A DNA stretch of 64,000 bases, taken from positions 1,568,001 to 1,632,000 of the forward strand of contig OY970325.1 in the NCBI GenBank assembly GCA_963717145.1, in the 5' to 3' direction. This DNA is from an uncultured Armatimonadetes bacterium (GTDB taxonomy: Bacteria > Armatimonadota > UBA5829 > DTJY01). Each line of letters starts with the position of its first letter. Within the stretch, counting starts at the first letter, position 1. Shown in pieces: positions 10,061 through 46,240 of the stretch. The notes beneath the pieces are model-generated. The model saw nothing but the letters and a program-made list of their open reading frames with translations, searched no databases and was not told the DNA's origin. A program made the translations under genes and the position numbers.

Positions 10061-10339
10061 ATATACCTCCAAAGTACCAGGGGAAACTCATCAATCGCGG
10101 AATGTGGTGACCACACTCACTCAGAAGTTTGACCTGCGTCGGGTTGATTCCTTCCCAATGCGGGCATATACACTATGGCAGAGACCGCCTGCTCTCTTGA
10201 ACGGCACTAGCAGGCCTGCTTAGAATGCATGAGTTGCGCCTCTCCCATTCTTAGACGCAGCCCGAGCGCCACTTGTGCACAATCCCGGAATACAATATAC
10301 TAAGAACAGCCTCAGAGACACCGGGACAAGGTGATTCAC

Positions 10340-11710
10340 ATGCGTACCAGGTTTTTCAAAGCTACCCTCATACTGAGCATCCTCGGCGCGATGCTCTCAA
10401 CCGGACTGATCGCCGCCAAAGCCCGATTAGCGCCCCATCAGCTCACAATCTTTTTCACCGGCGATGATTGGGGCAAGTACAAGTACTGCATATGACACAA
10501 TGAACTGGGCCTCGGTGGGGCCCCTAGACTGGCTACGTATCTTCGGCAGACGGCAGCGGCCGTTCCAAATCGCCTCGTCATCCATCTTGGCGACATGATA
10601 ATGGACGCCGGGAAGCCCGGCGCAATCCAACTCGACTTCTACCGTTTTGCGTTGCCCTACATGGGTTACGATATGGCCGGGATCGGCGAACTCGAGGTTC
10701 GCGCGTACAAGTACGTTGACGAGCAGTCGATCGCCGACTTGGGCGTGCCTCTGGTCTGTGCGAACGTTCTTCGGGAAAAGGACGGCAAACCACTGGTCGG
10801 TAAGCCCTATATCATCAGGAAGATGCCATCCGGGCTGCGCGTTGCTGTGATCGCCGTCGTTGGCGACGCAATTGTATATCCCGACCTGCAGAAGGAGTAC
10901 GGGGTCCGGGTACTACCACCTGCCGATGTCCTCAAGGCGAACATGGAGAAGCTCAGGAAAGAGGCCGACGTAATCGTCGTGCTGGCGCATGTCACCTATG
11001 ACGGCGCGGTCGCACTCGCCTCGCAGGTTCCCGGGATCGACGCGATCCTCAGCAGCCACCCTTCAACCGTTAAGAAGGATTACGAGAAGGTCGGAGATAC
11101 CGTCGTCATGCACTGCCGGAAGGACTATCAGTACGTCGGCAAGCTCACACTGGACATCAGTGCCGACGGCAAGATCACATCGTCCGCCGGAGAGCAGGTT
11201 CCACTGAACGACAAGCTCGCCGACGACGCGGAGATCGCCAAGCTGATCGAGACTGCTGACAAACGACGATCTGACCACTACGACAGAATGGCCAAGGAGC
11301 AGACCGCTCTGCTGAATGGCATTCAGACCGAGTTCCCACGGTTCGTCGGCGGTGGTCAGTGCGCGAAGTGCCACAAGGATATCGATAAGTCGTGGAAGAA
11401 GACAAAGCATGCCAAGGCGCATGATGCGCTGAAGGGAAAAAAGGACCCGAACGCGTTTCGCAACCCATACTGCCTGTCCTGCCACACAACCGGCTTCGAC
11501 CTGGAGAGCGGATTCAGTCGTGAAGCGTTGACGCCGCACCTGAAGAACGTGCAGTGCGAATCGTGCCACGGGGCCGGCTCCCTGCACGTTCAGAAGCCTA
11601 AGGAGCCCGGATACGGCAAGATTTCCGACGCGAATTGCCTCCGGTGTCACGACAGAGGCAATAGCCCCGACTTCGAGTACGAAAAGTATCTTGCCCAAGT
11701 GCGACATTAG
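10340..11710 (+). CDS. Putative selenoprotein: signal peptide + UshA-like metallophosphoesterase-fold domain with C-I-U + tetraheme cytochrome c domain
   Basis: ATG 10340 is in frame with ORF 10595..11710; single TGA at 10493-10495 (codon 52) in ...TGDDWGKYKYCI*HNELGLGGAPRLAT...; CxxCH x4 (CAKCH, CLSCH, CESCH, CLRCH). Confidence 0.88.
10507..10523 (+). promoter_or_regulatory. Candidate bacterial SECIS hairpin 1
   Basis: GGGCCTC-GGT-GGGGCCC begins 11 nt after the in-frame TGA. Confidence 0.8.
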
Positions 11711-11809
11711 GTGTACAATAGAAGGTGTTGTTCCGGCGATATATCGCCGGGGTAACCCGTGGGCACGCCACGCGCGCAATACATACATCATTCCGGACGG
11801 TCAATACTC

Positions 11810-13252
11810 ATGAAAGCAAGATTCTGCAGAGCCGTTATCTCGACGTTCCTCCTTGGTGTGATGATGCTTACGTCGGGCATCGTCGCCACTCGCTCCATGG
11901 CGGGGAAGGCGAAGATCACCCCAGGCCAGTTCACCATCTACTTCACCGGCGACGACTGGGCCGGCTACAAAGGTAGCTGTGGGTGACACAGCGAAGAGGA
12001 TCTCGGTGGGATCCACAAAAGAGCAACCTATCTGAAGAAGGCGCTGGAAGCCTCGCCCAACCGACTTCTCATTGATCTCGGCGATCTCGTGCCGGGACTC
12101 GGTGAGCCGGCGGAGATCAAGCTTGGCCTATACAAGACGGCGCTGCCCGCCATGAAGTACGACGTGATCGGCGTAGGCGAACTGGACGTGCGCACTATCA
12201 AGGACACCGGCAAGTCGCCCTTCGATAGCGCCAAGATCCCGCAGATCTGCGCGAATCTGGTGCTCGAAGACACGAAGAAACCGCTCCTCAAGACACCTTA
12301 TGTCATCAAGGAGATGCCGAGCGGCCTGCGCGTCGCGGTCATCGGCATCATAGGCAATACGACGATGAACCCCCAGATGGCCAAGCAGATGGGTGTCATA
12401 ACCATGCCGCCGGAACAGGCCGTCCGCAAGGCTATCGGATCCCTCAAGGGCAAGGCAGACATCTTTGTCGTGCTGGCCCATTCCGGTTACGATGAGGCCA
12501 AGAAGTTGGCCGAGGCTGTCTCGGGCGTTGACATCGTTCTGAGCAGTCACCCGTCGGCCGTTACTACCGACTTCGAGCGCGTGGGCGATAATATTCTCAT
12601 GCACTGCAAGGGAAACAGCAAGTACGTGGGGAAGCTCGTGCTCGACATCGATGCTGACGGCAAGATCACCTCGGCGACCGGCACTCAGGACCTTCTGGAC
12701 GCCAAGACTGAGAAGGACCCGGCGATGCAGAAGCTCATAGATGATACCGAGGCGGCCGTTCAGAAGTTTTACTCGAGCCAGAACCCCAGGGTCGGCGGAC
12801 CTCCTATGACCGGCGACGCATCGCCCCCACGCGAGGACCCCAGGCCGTTCGTCGGCGCTCAGAGATGCATTGGATGCCACTTGTCCATTCACCAAACATG
12901 GCAGAAGACCAAGCATGCCCAGGCGTTCGCGGACATGACCCAGAAAGACCCCAACGCGACGATGAACCCTCATTGTCTCTATTGCCATACAACCGGCTAT
13001 ATGGTCAACGGCGGCTACACGACCGAGACCGAGACTCCCCACCTGCGCAACGTACAATGTGAGTCGTGCCACGGACCCGGCAGCAAACACCTCCGCAACA
13101 CCCAGGAGAAGGGGTACGGCGCTACGACCGAGCTGACATGCCGCAAGTGTCACGATGGCGCCAACAGCCCGAAGTTCGACTACGCGAAGTACCGAGAGAA
13201 GATCGTTCACAAGGCTGCCTCACAGATTGTGAAACCTGCAGAGCAGAAATAA
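11810..13252 (+). CDS. Putative selenoprotein paralog 2: signal peptide + UshA-like domain with C-G-U + tetraheme cytochrome c domain
   Basis: ATG 11810 is in frame with ORF 12089..13252; single TGA at 11984-11986 (codon 59) in ...TGDDWAGYKGSCG*HSEEDLGGIHKRAT...; CxxCH x4 (CIGCH, CLYCH, CESCH, CRKCH). Confidence 0.9.
11998..12014 (+). promoter_or_regulatory. Candidate bacterial SECIS hairpin 2
   Basis: GGATCTC-GGT-GGGATCC begins 11 nt after the in-frame TGA; same geometry as hairpin 1 with compensatory changes. Confidence 0.8.
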
Positions 13253-13272: not shown

Positions 13273-13305
13273 AACCAGAGGCTTCCCCTGGGAAGCCTCT
13301 GGTTT
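13273..13305 (+). terminator. Strong hairpin after the selenoprotein pair (possible terminator)
   Basis: AACCAGAGGCTTCCC-CT-GGGAAGCCTCTGGTT; only a short T tail. Confidence 0.55.
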
Positions 13306-13316
13306 GCCGCACAATC

Positions 13317-14495
13317 ATGGAAAAAAGGACCATCCTAATGTCATTCTCTCGCGCCACTCGCCAACTCGTCATCGTGCTCATGATGCTCATCCTGGCGTCG
13401 TGCGCCTCTGCCTATGCGGACAGCTTCAAGGATGAGGTCGACATGGGCAAGGAGGGGGCCGCCGAGGTCGCGAAACAGAGCAAGTTTCTCACTGACGAGA
13501 AGCTGGTCAAGCGAGTGGAGACGATCGGTGACGCGATCGCGACCGTTGCCGTCTCTCGAGAGGTCCCGGCGTCCTACGGCAACTCGAAGCTCGCGCCGTT
13601 CAAGTACACTTTTCAGATCATCGACGACAAGGATGTGAACGCATTCTGCCTGTCGGGAGGCTACGTCTATGTGAACAAGGGTCTGCTCGACTACGTTCAG
13701 TCCGACGACGAACTCGCAGGTGTCATGGCCCATGAAATCGCCCACGCATCCCATCACCATATCATGCAGCTCGTCAAGGAGCAGAACAAACAGATGCTGA
13801 CCATGGCCATCGCAATCCTCGCCGGATATGCGATCGGCGGGGGACAGGGGGTAAGCGAGCTGGCGATGGGAGCGAACCTCGTGGCAATCGCAAAGATGAG
13901 CGCATACGGTCAGAAAGCCGAGAACGACGCCAACGTTACGGCCGTCGAATACATGACATCCGCGAAGTATAACCCCGTCGGGATGCTGACGTTCATGGAG
14001 CGGCTCGCCCGCGATGAGGTCCGCAAGCCATACATCGACTGGGGCATCTACCGCACTCACCCGCCTTCCTACGAGCGAGCGAAGGCGATCTCCCAACAGA
14101 TTGAGAAGAACGGCATCAAGGTGAACCGCCGCCTGGTCACGAGCTACCTCAAGGTTACTCTGAAGCCGGACGATGAAAAGGACCCCAAGTCGGTGCAGAT
14201 ATCGGTGGCGGACATGCCGATCGTCAAGCTGGCGGACTCCGGCGGAGTGAAGGCCCAGGCGCGTGCGGAGGCAGTGGCGAAGATGATCGACGCCGCTTTC
14301 CTTGCAGGGGCCCAGATGCGTGACATCAAGATGGGCATCACCGGAAGGTACGTCAAGATCAAGGACACGATCGTCATCGAGCCGACTCAGGAGGACGCCG
14401 ATCTTGCCGGTGTCACGATCCAGAAGGTCGCGGCCGATGCGGCGAAGTCACTGCGCAAGGTACTCTGGCAGGAGCAGTTGGACGCGAGCTACTAG
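13317..14495 (+). CDS. M48-family zinc metallopeptidase, secreted
   Basis: DVNAFCLSGG, SDDELAGVMAHEIAH (HExxH), THP motif; start may be 13338. Confidence 0.88.
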   Translation: MEKRTILMSFSRATRQLVIVLMMLILASCASAYADSFKDEVDMGKEGAAEVAKQSKFLTDEKLVKRVETIGDAIATVAVSREVPASYGNSKLAPFKYTFQIIDDKDVNAFCLSGGYVYVNKGLLDYVQSDDELAGVMAHEIAHASHHHIMQLVKEQNKQMLTMAIAILAGYAIGGGQGVSELAMGANLVAIAKMSAYGQKAENDANVTAVEYMTSAKYNPVGMLTFMERLARDEVRKPYIDWGIYRTHPPSYERAKAISQQIEKNGIKVNRRLVTSYLKVTLKPDDEKDPKSVQISVADMPIVKLADSGGVKAQARAEAVAKMIDAAFLAGAQMRDIKMGITGRYVKIKDTIVIEPTQEDADLAGVTIQKVAADAAKSLRKVLWQEQLDASY

Positions 14496-42701: not shown

Positions 42702-43082
42702 ATGCGAATTCCCGATGAGATAAGATTCGATTCCGACGGGTTGGTCCCGGCGGTCATACAGGACGCGGAAACCGGGCAGGTGCTGATGCTCGGGTTCATG
42801 AACCGCGAGTCGCTCCAGCGGACGCTCGATGAAGGCAAGGTCTGCTTCTGGAGCCGCTCGCGGAACAAGTTTTGGCTCAAGGGTGAGGAATCCGGCAACT
42901 TCCTCCTCGTGAAGGGCGTCTATGCCAACTGCTATGCCGACTCGCTACTCATCAAGGCCGAGCCGGTCGGCCCGACCTGCCATGCCGGCTACGATAGCTG
43001 CTACTACCGGCAGTTCACCGAGGATGGGCTCCAGGTGATCGCCGAGCAGGTCTTCGATCCGGCGGAGGTCTATAAGAAGTGA
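42702..43082 (+). CDS. hisI: Phosphoribosyl-AMP cyclohydrolase
   Basis: GLVPAVIQD, FWSRSR, WLKGEESGN, GPTCHAG..SC. Confidence 0.92.
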   Translation: MRIPDEIRFDSDGLVPAVIQDAETGQVLMLGFMNRESLQRTLDEGKVCFWSRSRNKFWLKGEESGNFLLVKGVYANCYADSLLIKAEPVGPTCHAGYDSCYYRQFTEDGLQVIAEQVFDPAEVYKK

Positions 43083-44581
43083 GAACGGCGACGAAGACCC
43101 GGAAGGCTGTCATTCTGAGCGCAGTGAAGAATCTGTCTCCGTGGGCCAGATTCTTCACTGCGCTCAGAATGACAGCCTTCCGCACAGGCATGGTTAGCGC
43201 ACTCGCAGTCCTTGCATGTGCGGCTGCGTGGGCGGCACCGGAGTACCGGGGCATTACCATACTCCACACGAACGACACCCACGGGCATCTGCTCCCCTTC
43301 AGTTTCGCTAAGCAGGTCAACCCGAAGGATAGCATCGCATCGATGCCTCACATCAGGGACATAGGCGGGATCGCACGCCGGGCCACGCTCGTTCACCGGA
43401 TCGAGGCCGAGTGCCGGGGGAACGTTCTGCTCCTCGACGCGGGCGATGCGCTCGACGGCACGCCCTTCTCCATCGAGTACATGGGCGAGGCCGATTTCGC
43501 CGCGATGTCGGCGGCCGGATACGACGCGATGACTCCCGGCAACCATGAGTTCAGTGCCTCGTACGACGAGTTCAACCGCAATGTCAATACGGCGACCTTC
43601 CCCATCGTGAGCGCCGATATCGTGGACCGGAAGTCAGGCAAGCTCGCCCTTCCGCCGTACACGATCTTCGAGATCGATGGCGTAAGGATTGCGGTCTTCG
43701 GGCTGACCGTCCCTGTCCCCAACTACCGAGCCGCGAAGGAAGGCTTCGACTTCCTCGATCCGATCCAGGCGGCAAAGGAACTGCTCCCACAGCTTCGAGA
43801 GAAGGCCGATGTCGTCATAGCGCTGTCCCACCTTGGCGTCGTCGACGACGAGCAATTGGCCCGCGAAGTGCCGGGGATCGACCTGATCGTGGGCGGGCAT
43901 TCGCACACGCGGCTGGCGAAACCTCTGTTCATCAGGACCAGGGAGCGGGAGGCATTCCGGATCGGCGGGACTCTCATCGTGCAGGATTACTGGTGGGGTG
44001 GCGAGTTGGGGCGGCTCGACCTCCGGCTCAGGCGCGACGGCGGGCCATTCACAGTGATGGGCTACGACGGCCGGCTGCTCCCGGTGACCGCTGACATCCC
44101 TGATGATCCCGAGACGAAGAAGGTCGTCGATCGCTACTATCGGCCGATCGCGCGGAAGTACGACGAAGTCATCGGGGAGACATCGGAGACTCTCTACGCT
44201 GGGCCCAAGCTGATCCGCCTGGTATGCGATGCCATGCGGGAGGCGTCAGGGGCGCAGATCGGCGTCTACGGTGGGCTGCGAGGCGATCTCCTTGCCGGCA
44301 AGATCAGGGTCTGGGACATTGCAGTTATGCTGCCCTTCAGGAACAAGTTGATGACCGCCGAGATCGCCGGAGGACAGCTTAAGCAGGCGATGAAGGCTCA
44401 TGGTCTCTTGTGTTCGGATATCGGAGAACCGCTCGACGATGACACGACCTACACCATCGCCACGGTCGACTTCTACCTGGGCAACGCTCTCAAGGATGCC
44501 AAGCCGATCAAGACCATCGCCGATGATTACCGCGACTCGGTGATCGCCTACATCAAGACTCTCGGGACAATCTCACCGTAG
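43079..44581 (+). CDS. Bifunctional metallophosphatase/5'-nucleotidase (UshA family)
   Basis: HTNDTHG, DAGD, GNHE, LSH, GGHSH plus C-terminal domain; alternative start 43190. Confidence 0.9.
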   Translation: MRTATKTRKAVILSAVKNLSPWARFFTALRMTAFRTGMVSALAVLACAAAWAAPEYRGITILHTNDTHGHLLPFSFAKQVNPKDSIASMPHIRDIGGIARRATLVHRIEAECRGNVLLLDAGDALDGTPFSIEYMGEADFAAMSAAGYDAMTPGNHEFSASYDEFNRNVNTATFPIVSADIVDRKSGKLALPPYTIFEIDGVRIAVFGLTVPVPNYRAAKEGFDFLDPIQAAKELLPQLREKADVVIALSHLGVVDDEQLAREVPGIDLIVGGHSHTRLAKPLFIRTREREAFRIGGTLIVQDYWWGGELGRLDLRLRRDGGPFTVMGYDGRLLPVTADIPDDPETKKVVDRYYRPIARKYDEVIGETSETLYAGPKLIRLVCDAMREASGAQIGVYGGLRGDLLAGKIRVWDIAVMLPFRNKLMTAEIAGGQLKQAMKAHGLLCSDIGEPLDDDTTYTIATVDFYLGNALKDAKPIKTIADDYRDSVIAYIKTLGTISP

Positions 44582-44674: not shown

Positions 44675-46240
44675 ATGCCCAGATTCACCAGGCTCTGTAT
44701 TCTCTTACTGATTGGCATCGCCGTCCGCGTGCCGTCGGCCGCCCAGGAATATCGTGGGATCACGCTCCTCTACACGAATGACATCCACGATCACCTGCTG
44801 CCATTCAGCTACCCGGATCCGCCGAACAACAGCCTGGGTTATTCGAAGATGAAGGCGATCAAGAACATCGGCGGAGTGGCGCGCATCGCCACGTTGATCG
44901 ACCACGTCCGTCAGGAGACCAAGGGCAACACGCTTGCCTTCGACGCCGGCGACCTGCTCGAGGGAACTCCTCTCACCATCGAGTATCATGGCGCGGCCGA
45001 CTTCGCCGCGCTCTCAGCCGCCGGGTACAATGCGTTCGTTCTGGGCAACCACGACTTACAGGTATCGCTCGACCAGTTGCACAAGAACATCAGCATGGCC
45101 TCGTTCCCTGTGGTCTGCGCGAATGTAATCGACCGGAGAACCGGCAAGCTCCTCCTGCCGCCATACGCGATCTTCACGGTGCAGGATGTCAAGATCGCGG
45201 TCCTCGGCGTGACAGCCGACGGCGTCGCGGACGGACTGAAAGCCGTCAAGGAGGGCCTGACGGTCACCGATCCGGTCGCCGCCGCCAGGGAGTACGTCCC
45301 CAAGCTCCGCGAGCAGGCGGACCTCGTGGTCATCCTGAGCCACATGGGAGTCGGCGAGGACAAGAAGCTTGCGAAGGACGTTCCCGGCATCGACGTGATC
45401 TTCGGCGGACACTCGCACTCGTGGCAGAAGGAGCCGATCCTCGTCAAGAACCGCGACTGGGAACCGTTCCGCATAGACGGCACGATCAGCGCATACTGCT
45501 ACGAGCACGGCGGCGAGCTTGGGCGATTGAACCTCCGGCTGCGAAAGAACAACGGCCGGTTCGAGATCATGGGCTTCGACGGCGGGCTGATTCCGGTCAC
45601 GGCCGACATCCCCGACGATCCGAAGACTGCCAACGTGATCGACAGGTACTACAAGCCGATCGCACATCTGTATGACGAGGTCGTCGGTGAGGCCGCAGAC
45701 ACGTTCTTCAACGATCGCGCGGGAGAGAATACAATGCTCAACCTGATCTGCGATGCCATGAAGGAAGTCACCGGCTCGCAGGTCGCGGTCTTCGGTGAGG
45801 CGGGATGCCGGGGGGATGTCATCGCCGGCCCGGTCAAGGTCTGGGACCTGAGTCTCGTGATGCCGAATCCCTACAAAATGGTGACGATGCGGATCACCGG
45901 CGCGCGGCTGAAGGAGCACCTGGCGCTCCGCATCCCGGGCGTCTCCGCCGGGATGAAGTACAAGGTCGTCGGAGCGACTGCCACCGAGAGCCCGAGGAAA
46001 GGCCAGAGGGTCGGCACGATCGCCGAGTGTACCCTCGACGGCAAGCCGATCGACGACAACGCGATGTACACGCTCACGACCCACGAGTGGTTCCTCCAGC
46101 TTTTCTTCAAGGACATCACCGACGCAAAGATACTCGATCTGGACTGCCGCGGTGCGGTGGCGGAGTACTTCAGGAGACACAAGGTCGTCTCGCCCGTGAG
46201 GGATGGACGGCGCGACGTGGAGAGGGGCTTGCTCGGATGA
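44675..46240 (+). CDS. Second UshA-family 5'-nucleotidase, secreted
   Basis: YTNDIHD, DAGD, GNHD, LSH, GGHSH; tandem paralog of the upstream gene. Confidence 0.9.
   Translation: MPRFTRLCILLLIGIAVRVPSAAQEYRGITLLYTNDIHDHLLPFSYPDPPNNSLGYSKMKAIKNIGGVARIATLIDHVRQETKGNTLAFDAGDLLEGTPLTIEYHGAADFAALSAAGYNAFVLGNHDLQVSLDQLHKNISMASFPVVCANVIDRRTGKLLLPPYAIFTVQDVKIAVLGVTADGVADGLKAVKEGLTVTDPVAAAREYVPKLREQADLVVILSHMGVGEDKKLAKDVPGIDVIFGGHSHSWQKEPILVKNRDWEPFRIDGTISAYCYEHGGELGRLNLRLRKNNGRFEIMGFDGGLIPVTADIPDDPKTANVIDRYYKPIAHLYDEVVGEAADTFFNDRAGENTMLNLICDAMKEVTGSQVAVFGEAGCRGDVIAGPVKVWDLSLVMPNPYKMVTMRITGARLKEHLALRIPGVSAGMKYKVVGATATESPRKGQRVGTIAECTLDGKPIDDNAMYTLTTHEWFLQLFFKDITDAKILDLDCRGAVAEYFRRHKVVSPVRDGRRDVERGLLG

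Follow-up and report, generated by a model that had tools for sequence, protein, structure and literature searches.

Do two neighbouring genes that are each crossed by one in-frame TGA end at that codon, or is the codon read as selenocysteine (Sec), and what protein would then be made? This question is raised by a tandem pair, here called gene A and gene B, in a stretch of 64,000 nucleotides (the window) of contig OY970325.1 (positions 1,568,001 to 1,632,000, forward strand; assembly GCA_963717145.1) from an uncultured Armatimonadetes bacterium. An earlier note on this DNA had proposed that both TGAs are read as Sec and that the genes encode hidden selenoproteins, in which an exported UshA-like domain with a C-x-U motif is fused to a tetrahaem cytochrome c. 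From the sequence comparisons reported here we are highly confident that A and B are a tandem selenoprotein pair of a catalogued family, whose UGA codons would be decoded as Sec to yield exported UshA-like/cytochrome c554-like proteins.

When the TGA is read through, gene A (10340-11710, + strand) is a single frame of 456 codons followed by a stop, and gene B (11810-13252, + strand) a single frame of 480 codons followed by a stop. The sole in-frame TGA is codon 52 in gene A (10493-10495, context C-I-TGA-H) and codon 59 in gene B (11984-11986, context C-G-TGA-H); further stops or frameshifts were found in neither gene, and the TGAs stand at the positions first given for them. From end to end, the read-through products of A and B share 45% identity (BLASTP E 1e-149) and their alignment crosses the TGA, which bears out the claim that the homology of the paralogs continues on both sides of the codon. 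Each protein carries four CxxCH motifs at its C-terminal end, and in both genes a hydrophobic N-terminal leader is present only upstream of the TGA, as had also been claimed. Gene calling with table 11 splits each locus into a short leader ORF (open reading frame) and a long ORF (10595-11710; 12089-13252), the latter starting downstream of the TGA and leaderless.

Membership in a catalogued (seleno)protein family

The best NCBIfam match of both proteins is NF041198, 'UshA_like_PCGU', UshA-like (seleno)protein (E 1e-67 for A and 6e-73 for B), an equivalog model of 519 positions in which the tetrahaem tail is included (positions 353-519). Positions 10-286 and 353-519 of the model align in one frame across the TGA, the next family reaches at most 64 bits, and the C-x-U/C motif at the conserved column of the model is found in A (C-I-U) and in B (C-G-U). 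By this comparison, A and B are divergent members of the family: they share with it the leader, the remodelled 5'-nucleotidase domain, the tetrahaem c554-like tail and the C-x-U/C at the same column. They differ from its name-giving clade in that their subclade has F-T-G-D-D and C-G-U-H (C-I-U-H in A) versus P-C-G-U-G-G, and in that it still has four phosphoesterase ligands which are lost there. The model NF049981, 'UshA-like (seleno)protein family 2' (262 positions, about half the length of NF041198), is only distantly related to the N-terminal domain; A and B score 21.6 and 29 bits against its cut-off of 140 bits and fall outside it. Its motif is tabulated as CxxU (PMC13188914), versus CxU in A and B.

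The family is large, with 488 cluster representatives at E ≤ 1e-30, and Sec/Cys switching is frequent in it. When the phylum was surveyed with NF041198, 120 of 201 genomes gave a match at E ≤ 1e-25, none of them above the model's cut-off; these matches cover half the profile and include ordinary nucleotidases and cytochromes, and they were set aside. The tables of an ocean survey list 'COG0737, UshA-like, CxU' with 76 Sec sequences (Zhang and Gladyshev, 2008, PMC2398784), and a 'UshA-like protein, CxU' is tabulated in two reviews (PMC9312934, PMC13188914), one of which gives NF041198 by number. The architecture, the CxU motif and the switching between Sec and Cys are thus already known. The word 'hidden' in the earlier note therefore stands for the individual genes, which gene callers truncate, but not for the family, which is already catalogued (NF041198; COG0737 UshA-like CxU).

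Decoding of the in-frame UGA

Homologs were searched in 41 genomes (the own genome and 40 relatives); most contain full-length homologs, many of these with one in-frame TGA. We aligned 44 frames, each of at least 250 codons and with at least two CxxCH motifs, and excluded a fragment without N-terminus (L055) and a frame with an unrelated N-terminus (L075); a further locus, L034, was omitted because it lies on the same contig as L037. The resulting 42 rows represent 33 related genomes, the source genome itself and a single public contig. At the Sec column, TGA is found in 21 rows (genes A and B plus 19 homologs from 17 genomes) and Cys in the other 21, while all 42 rows have a Cys two residues before it. 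A similar picture emerges from the best 150 cluster representatives out of 1.84 billion clustered proteins: the column is spanned by 106, all of which have Cys there (104 as C-x-C), whereas 40 begin just past it, within their first 30 residues, and four are otherwise incomplete. The earlier note had proposed looking for homologs with Cys (as C-x-C) or Sec at this column, and both were found.

The two states of the column also occur close together. A third paralog of the family in the same genome (L033 1411-2859; G000:C1:2702150-2703600) has the Cys form C-N-C; its product is 482 residues long and 33% identical to gene B, and it belongs to an all-Cys clade common to many relatives. Within one genus, near-identical orthologs carry TGA in one case (L056, G005:C32) and TGC in the other (L068, G010:C14), which is a very recent Sec/Cys switch.

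The source genome, a single contig of 5,366,867 bp that is estimated to be 98% complete, holds all four components of the Sec machinery that the earlier note had named, each above its cut-off: selA (567 bits), selB (383 bits), selD (392.5 bits) and the tRNA-Sec gene selC (70.6 bits). The tRNA lies ~900 nt downstream of selA (G000:C1:1084344-1086707) and is called tRNA-SeC with anticodon tca by ARAGORN. The selD gene has one in-frame TGA of its own (G000:C1:4140327-4141253), and SelD of this genome is probably itself a Sec-containing protein. TGA terminates 14 of the 35 long non-overlapping frames in the window and is thus an ordinary stop elsewhere in it.

Downstream of the UGA, RNAfold predicts in both genes a hairpin at nucleotides 15-31, counted from the U of UGA; it consists of a 7-bp stem and a GGU loop and sets in 11 nt past the codon. 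The stems of A and B differ in two base pairs, each altered on both sides. Among the Sec forms of the A/B clade (nine sequences, eight of them distinct), 56 of 56 cells are paired and four of the seven pairs are doubly changed; neither the pairing nor the covariation score was matched by any of 500 shuffles, and pairing stayed at or below 68% in a slid control in which the partner was displaced by 1-3 columns. More widely, 17 of 21 Sec forms and 4 of 21 Cys forms have an ungapped hairpin of 6 bp or more at this distance; one of these four is the TGC form of the recent switch (L068), which retains an 8-bp hairpin. The PCG[U/C] clade has one codon fewer after Sec, yet the same distance from UGA to hairpin, which fits a constraint on UGA spacing better than a by-product of coding. 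Spacing and G-rich loop presumably fit the rule for a bacterial selenocysteine insertion sequence (SECIS). We take the covariation as support for a recoding hairpin, not as proof of it.

Several results nevertheless weigh against this reading of the pair. NF041198 scores only 228.9 bits for A and 246.3 bits for B, under its cut-off of 275 bits, although it is the top match over both halves of the proteins; among the relatives of this lineage, one of 27 passes (276.2 bits). One fixed hairpin fits 80.7% of the cells in the PCG[U/C] clade, which is not better than shuffles, and no Rfam family, SECIS included, matched the hairpins at E ≤ 1. The minimum free energy of UGA-flanking stretches of 60-91 nt is not below that of shuffles (z -1.09 to +0.62), so that the case for the hairpin rests on position and covariation, and the covariation set is small (eight distinct rows) and its rows are related. 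A functional assay of the family was not found in the literature searched, which offers catalogue tables only, supplements lying outside the search. Last, no redox partner is shared among the neighbours of 14 homolog loci or in the window, which bears on the function proposed below.

Two other explanations of the TGAs have to be set against Sec. If they were real stops, the loci would be pseudogenes, or each would encode a small leader peptide and a separate leaderless cytochrome; this agrees with the table-11 calls (10595-11710 and 12089-13252) and with the 387-residue truncated form of B in the database. It is, however, at odds with cytochrome c maturation, since haem is not attached to c-type cytochromes that have no leader, and with much of the evidence above. 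Homology extends upstream of the TGA; 19 more homologs, from 17 genomes, share the TGA at this column, and all the others have Cys there; compensatory changes mark the hairpin; the Sec machinery is complete; and neither gene has another stop or frameshift. We consider real stops very improbable. That TGC or TGG was misassembled or miscalled as TGA is scarcely credible, since such errors would have hit two separate genes at the same column and the independent assemblies of 17 other genomes agree; moreover, soil-metagenome contigs from three studies, 85-99% alike, cover both TGA sites gap-free, and no difference at 10493-10495 occurs among the 40 of 247 contig differences listed, all of which lie before the gene B codon. 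Altogether, the Sec machinery, the hairpin with its compensatory changes, the TGA-or-Cys column, the C-N-C paralog and the use of TGA as an ordinary stop elsewhere indicate that both TGAs are very probably Sec codons, in line with what had been proposed.

Remodelled phosphoesterase domain, cytochrome and proposed function

We next asked what the read-through proteins would do. An AlphaFold2 model of gene B, built on a 42-sequence alignment, has a mean predicted local distance difference test (pLDDT) score of 82.4, with linker residues 325-343 below 50. Its N-terminal domain matches 5'-nucleotidase structures in Foldseek (E 9e-24, ~310 aligned columns, 20-22% identity), and the nearest solved proteins by phmmer against the PDB are cytochrome c554 (5e-13) and CD73 (1e-12). 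A Pfam scan of A and B gave no metallophosphatase or 5'-nucleotidase C-terminal domain at E ≤ 0.01. The phosphoesterase motifs were mapped by aligning gene B with a genuine 5'-nucleotidase-like gene of the same window (43079-44581; 31% identity over 186 residues), and the C-x-U loop follows directly on motif I. In both A and B, the Asp of motif I, the Asp of motif II, the His of motif IV and the first His of motif V are kept, while the motif I His is replaced by Trp, the Asn-His of motif III by Val-Gly and the second His of motif V by Ser. A and B share the N-terminal fold of two calcineurin-like metallophosphoesterases, the periplasmic 5'-nucleotidase/UDP-sugar hydrolase UshA and the ecto-5'-nucleotidase CD73, without the complete set of motifs I-V, and where those enzymes have a nucleotide-binding C-terminal domain, A and B have a cytochrome instead.

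These changes run through the family. None of the 42 rows has Asn or His at the motif III positions, and the motif I His position is substituted in 40 of them. Of the four remaining ligands, Asp48, Asp92, His224 and His247 are all retained in the 11 rows of the A/B clade; the PCG[U/C] clade (18 rows) retains only Asp48, and the all-Cys C-N-C clade (13 rows) retains Asp92, His224 and His247, with Asp48 in one row. The only universal residues of the N-terminal domain are Cys57, Sec/Cys59, Gly66-Gly67, Gly91 and Gly123. With the motif residues degenerate, ordinary phosphoesterase chemistry is very unlikely in A and B, and C-x-C/U appears as the constant of the family.

The tail is recognized by Pfam PF13435 (Cytochrome_C554) in both proteins, above the gathering threshold of 20.8 bits (scores in Table 1), so that the cytochrome family suggested at the outset for comparison was the right one. 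Alignment A1 (42 sequences) has 14 invariant columns, all within this domain: 12 belong to the four CxxCH motifs, and the other two are His residues, H369 and H427; a third His outside CxxCH, H467 near the C-terminus, is the majority residue of the consensus. For one of the four haems, no distal His is thus apparent. Nitrosomonas cytochrome c554 (PDB 1bvb/1ft5) is a homolog of the domain, and the first three CxxCH motifs of the two align; it is, however, a free electron carrier of 211 residues, whereas A and B carry the domain, ~130 residues long, fused to a scaffold that resembles an enzyme. Export, Sec insertion, the four haem-attachment sites and the degenerate phosphoesterase site are strongly supported by the sequences, where they are not shown by them directly.

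On this basis we propose the following mechanism. SelB and tRNA-Sec would decode the single UGA, directed by the hairpin that starts 11 nt downstream, to give a single product, exported through the Sec pathway, with a signal peptide, a remodelled metallophosphatase domain of the 5'-nucleotidase type with C-x-U at motif I, and a four-haem c554-like domain. The Cys/Sec pair may then act as a redox-active selenylsulfide or as a covalent catalytic selenolate, phosphoesterase chemistry presumably having been lost. The active site of 5'-nucleotidases faces the second domain; in A and B the pair would accordingly lie where the cytochrome adjoins the remodelled domain and could exchange electrons with the haem chain, which would be linked to periplasmic carriers. 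That a Cys/Sec redox centre at the cytochrome interface is wired through the haem chain to periplasmic carriers is a proposal to which we give about even chances of being right. Our best guess for the substrate is a small inorganic compound of sulfur or selenium, or else a thiol or disulfide of small size.

Two other roles for Sec were weighed. In one, put forward for the A/B clade, Sec59, Cys57 and His60 would bind one metal at the former phosphoesterase site together with Asp92, His224 and His247 (and Asp48), and the haem chain would serve a seleno-metal centre. Metal site 2 of metallophosphoesterases has four ligands, three of which are the Asp of motif II, the His of motif IV and the first His of motif V; all 11 A/B-clade rows keep Asp48, Asp92, His224 and His247 while the motif III Asn/His is gone, and His60 follows Sec in 9 of the 11. 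Against a metal, three of the four ligand positions are occupied by Asn, Gln and other residues in the PCG[U/C] clade, the SCNC clade is without Asp48, and universal conservation is confined to C-x-C/U, GG and two other Gly. We hold this role to be unlikely; an extended form of it, in which Sec ligates a metal in the half-retained phosphoesterase site of the A/B subclade and A and B also form a heterodimer with two such centres, is highly doubtful. Should it be true, selenoenzymes would have a kind of active site so far undescribed, a periplasmic seleno-metal centre served by a haem wire of the c554 type. In the other role, Sec would be the distal ligand, or a neighbour, of the His-poor haem and would carry out covalent sulfur chemistry, as TsdA- or SoxAX-type enzymes do with their Cys-ligated haems. 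The haem without an evident distal His would fit, as would the homology to cytochrome c554, whose haem 2 is five-coordinate, and the position of the cytochrome in the place of the second 5'-nucleotidase domain. The argument is purely inferential, however, because the AlphaFold2 model is haem-free and the domain packing is uncertain (linker 325-343 below pLDDT 50), and we regard haem ligation by Sec as improbable.

A replacement of DsbA/DsbB by A and B was also considered and finds no support, as there is no complementary pattern of presence and absence: six genomes of the bacterial family (G000, G001, G003, G005, G008 and G009) were searched for DsbA, DsbB and VKOR with no match at E ≤ 0.001, and these include G003, which has no gene B homolog, and G008, which has only weak partial homologs.

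The tandem pair, its relatives and its neighbourhood

A quick tree separates the orthologs of A (62-77% identity) from those of B (63-79%) as sister clades, with Shimodaira-Hasegawa-like approximate likelihood ratio support of 100 and 99 for the clades and 98 where they join. Judged from this tree, the duplication behind A and B is not recent. Longest-contig values (6680, 4442 and 7987) are shared between three database proteins of the A type and three of the B type, which suggests the same tandem arrangement in relatives. Tandem pairs of the family were also found in three more distant genomes (L062, G032:C259; L066, G036:C168; L069, G022:C18). At L066, both copies lie in one frame of 960 codons with eight CxxCH motifs when the TGA is read through.

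The truncation by standard gene callers that the earlier note had anticipated is visible in the databases. The entry of gene B itself has 387 residues and is N-terminally truncated, and the 22 closest database proteins, this entry among them, all start past the Sec column. In practice, the present analysis therefore amounts to an annotation correction for A, B and these 22 relatives: recorded without leader and Sec, they look like cytoplasmic c-type cytochromes, which cannot exist, and the NF041198 cut-off would miss A, B and 26 of the 27 lineage relatives. Nothing here is surprising to a selenoprotein specialist; the clade-specific half metal site and the conserved A/B pair are small biochemical leads.

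Directly downstream of gene B and on the same strand lies an exported gene of the Pfam family Peptidase_M48. Such a gene follows the homolog in five of the six loci checked in the same bacterial family (the exception being L078), and loci of other clades have no M48 neighbour. The link may be plain synteny or functional; the strong hairpin between gene B and the M48 gene, together with the restriction to one clade, points to plain synteny as a possible explanation. The other neighbours in the window are housekeeping or cell-wall genes. The coordinates of all features are collected in Table 1.

Table 1. Features of the A/B locus (window coordinates unless a homolog locus is named); limits of signal peptides are approximate.
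Feature	Position	Strand	Evidence or remark
Gene A, predicted exported UshA-like/tetrahaem cytochrome selenoprotein	10340..11710	+	NF041198 228.9 bits; PF13435 65.6 bits; four CxxCH
Gene A predicted signal peptide, ~residues 1-27	10340..10420	+	Hydrophobic stretch in translation
Gene A probable Sec codon TGA, codon 52, C-I-U-H	10493..10495	+	
Gene A SECIS-like hairpin, 7-bp stem, GGU loop	10507..10523	+	Folding, covariation; also found as inverted repeat
Gene A cytochrome c554-like tetrahaem domain, ~residues 338-456	11351..11707	+	Profiles, CxxCH
Gene B, predicted paralogous exported UshA-like/tetrahaem selenoprotein	11810..13252	+	NF041198 246.3 bits; PF13435 58.6 bits; fold match
Gene B predicted signal peptide, ~residues 1-28	11810..11893	+	Translation; pLDDT <50 at residues 1-24
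Gene B probable Sec codon TGA, codon 59, C-G-U-H	11984..11986	+	
Gene B SECIS-like hairpin, 7-bp stem, GGU loop	11998..12014	+	Two stem pairs with compensatory double changes versus gene A
Gene B cytochrome c554-like tetrahaem domain, ~residues 345-480	12842..13249	+	PF13435; phmmer against PDB 1bvb, E 5e-13
Possible terminator, 12-bp G+C-rich hairpin then TTT, just 3' of gene B	13275..13305	+	Read by eye
Peptidase_M48 gene, neighbour of gene B	13317..14495	+	Pfam family
Peptidase_M48 gene at homolog loci	L076 2669-3907; L077 2633-3820; L079 2834-3991; L089 2800-3990		

The hairpin behind gene B was not reported by a scan for the terminator consensus, its T run being too short. Gene A has an alternative in-frame start, a GTG at 10331. 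The 99-nt spacer between A and B contains a perfect 18-nt palindrome (11733-11750) that is not followed by a T run, and a promoter-like match (11691-11719) stands directly before the palindrome. Elsewhere in the window, a second tandem pair on the + strand (43079-44581, which served as the motif reference above, and 44675-46240) encodes ordinary-looking exported proteins of the 5'-nucleotidase/UshA type, 500 and 521 residues long, which keep N-D-x-H and G-N-H and have neither a cytochrome tail nor a TGA.

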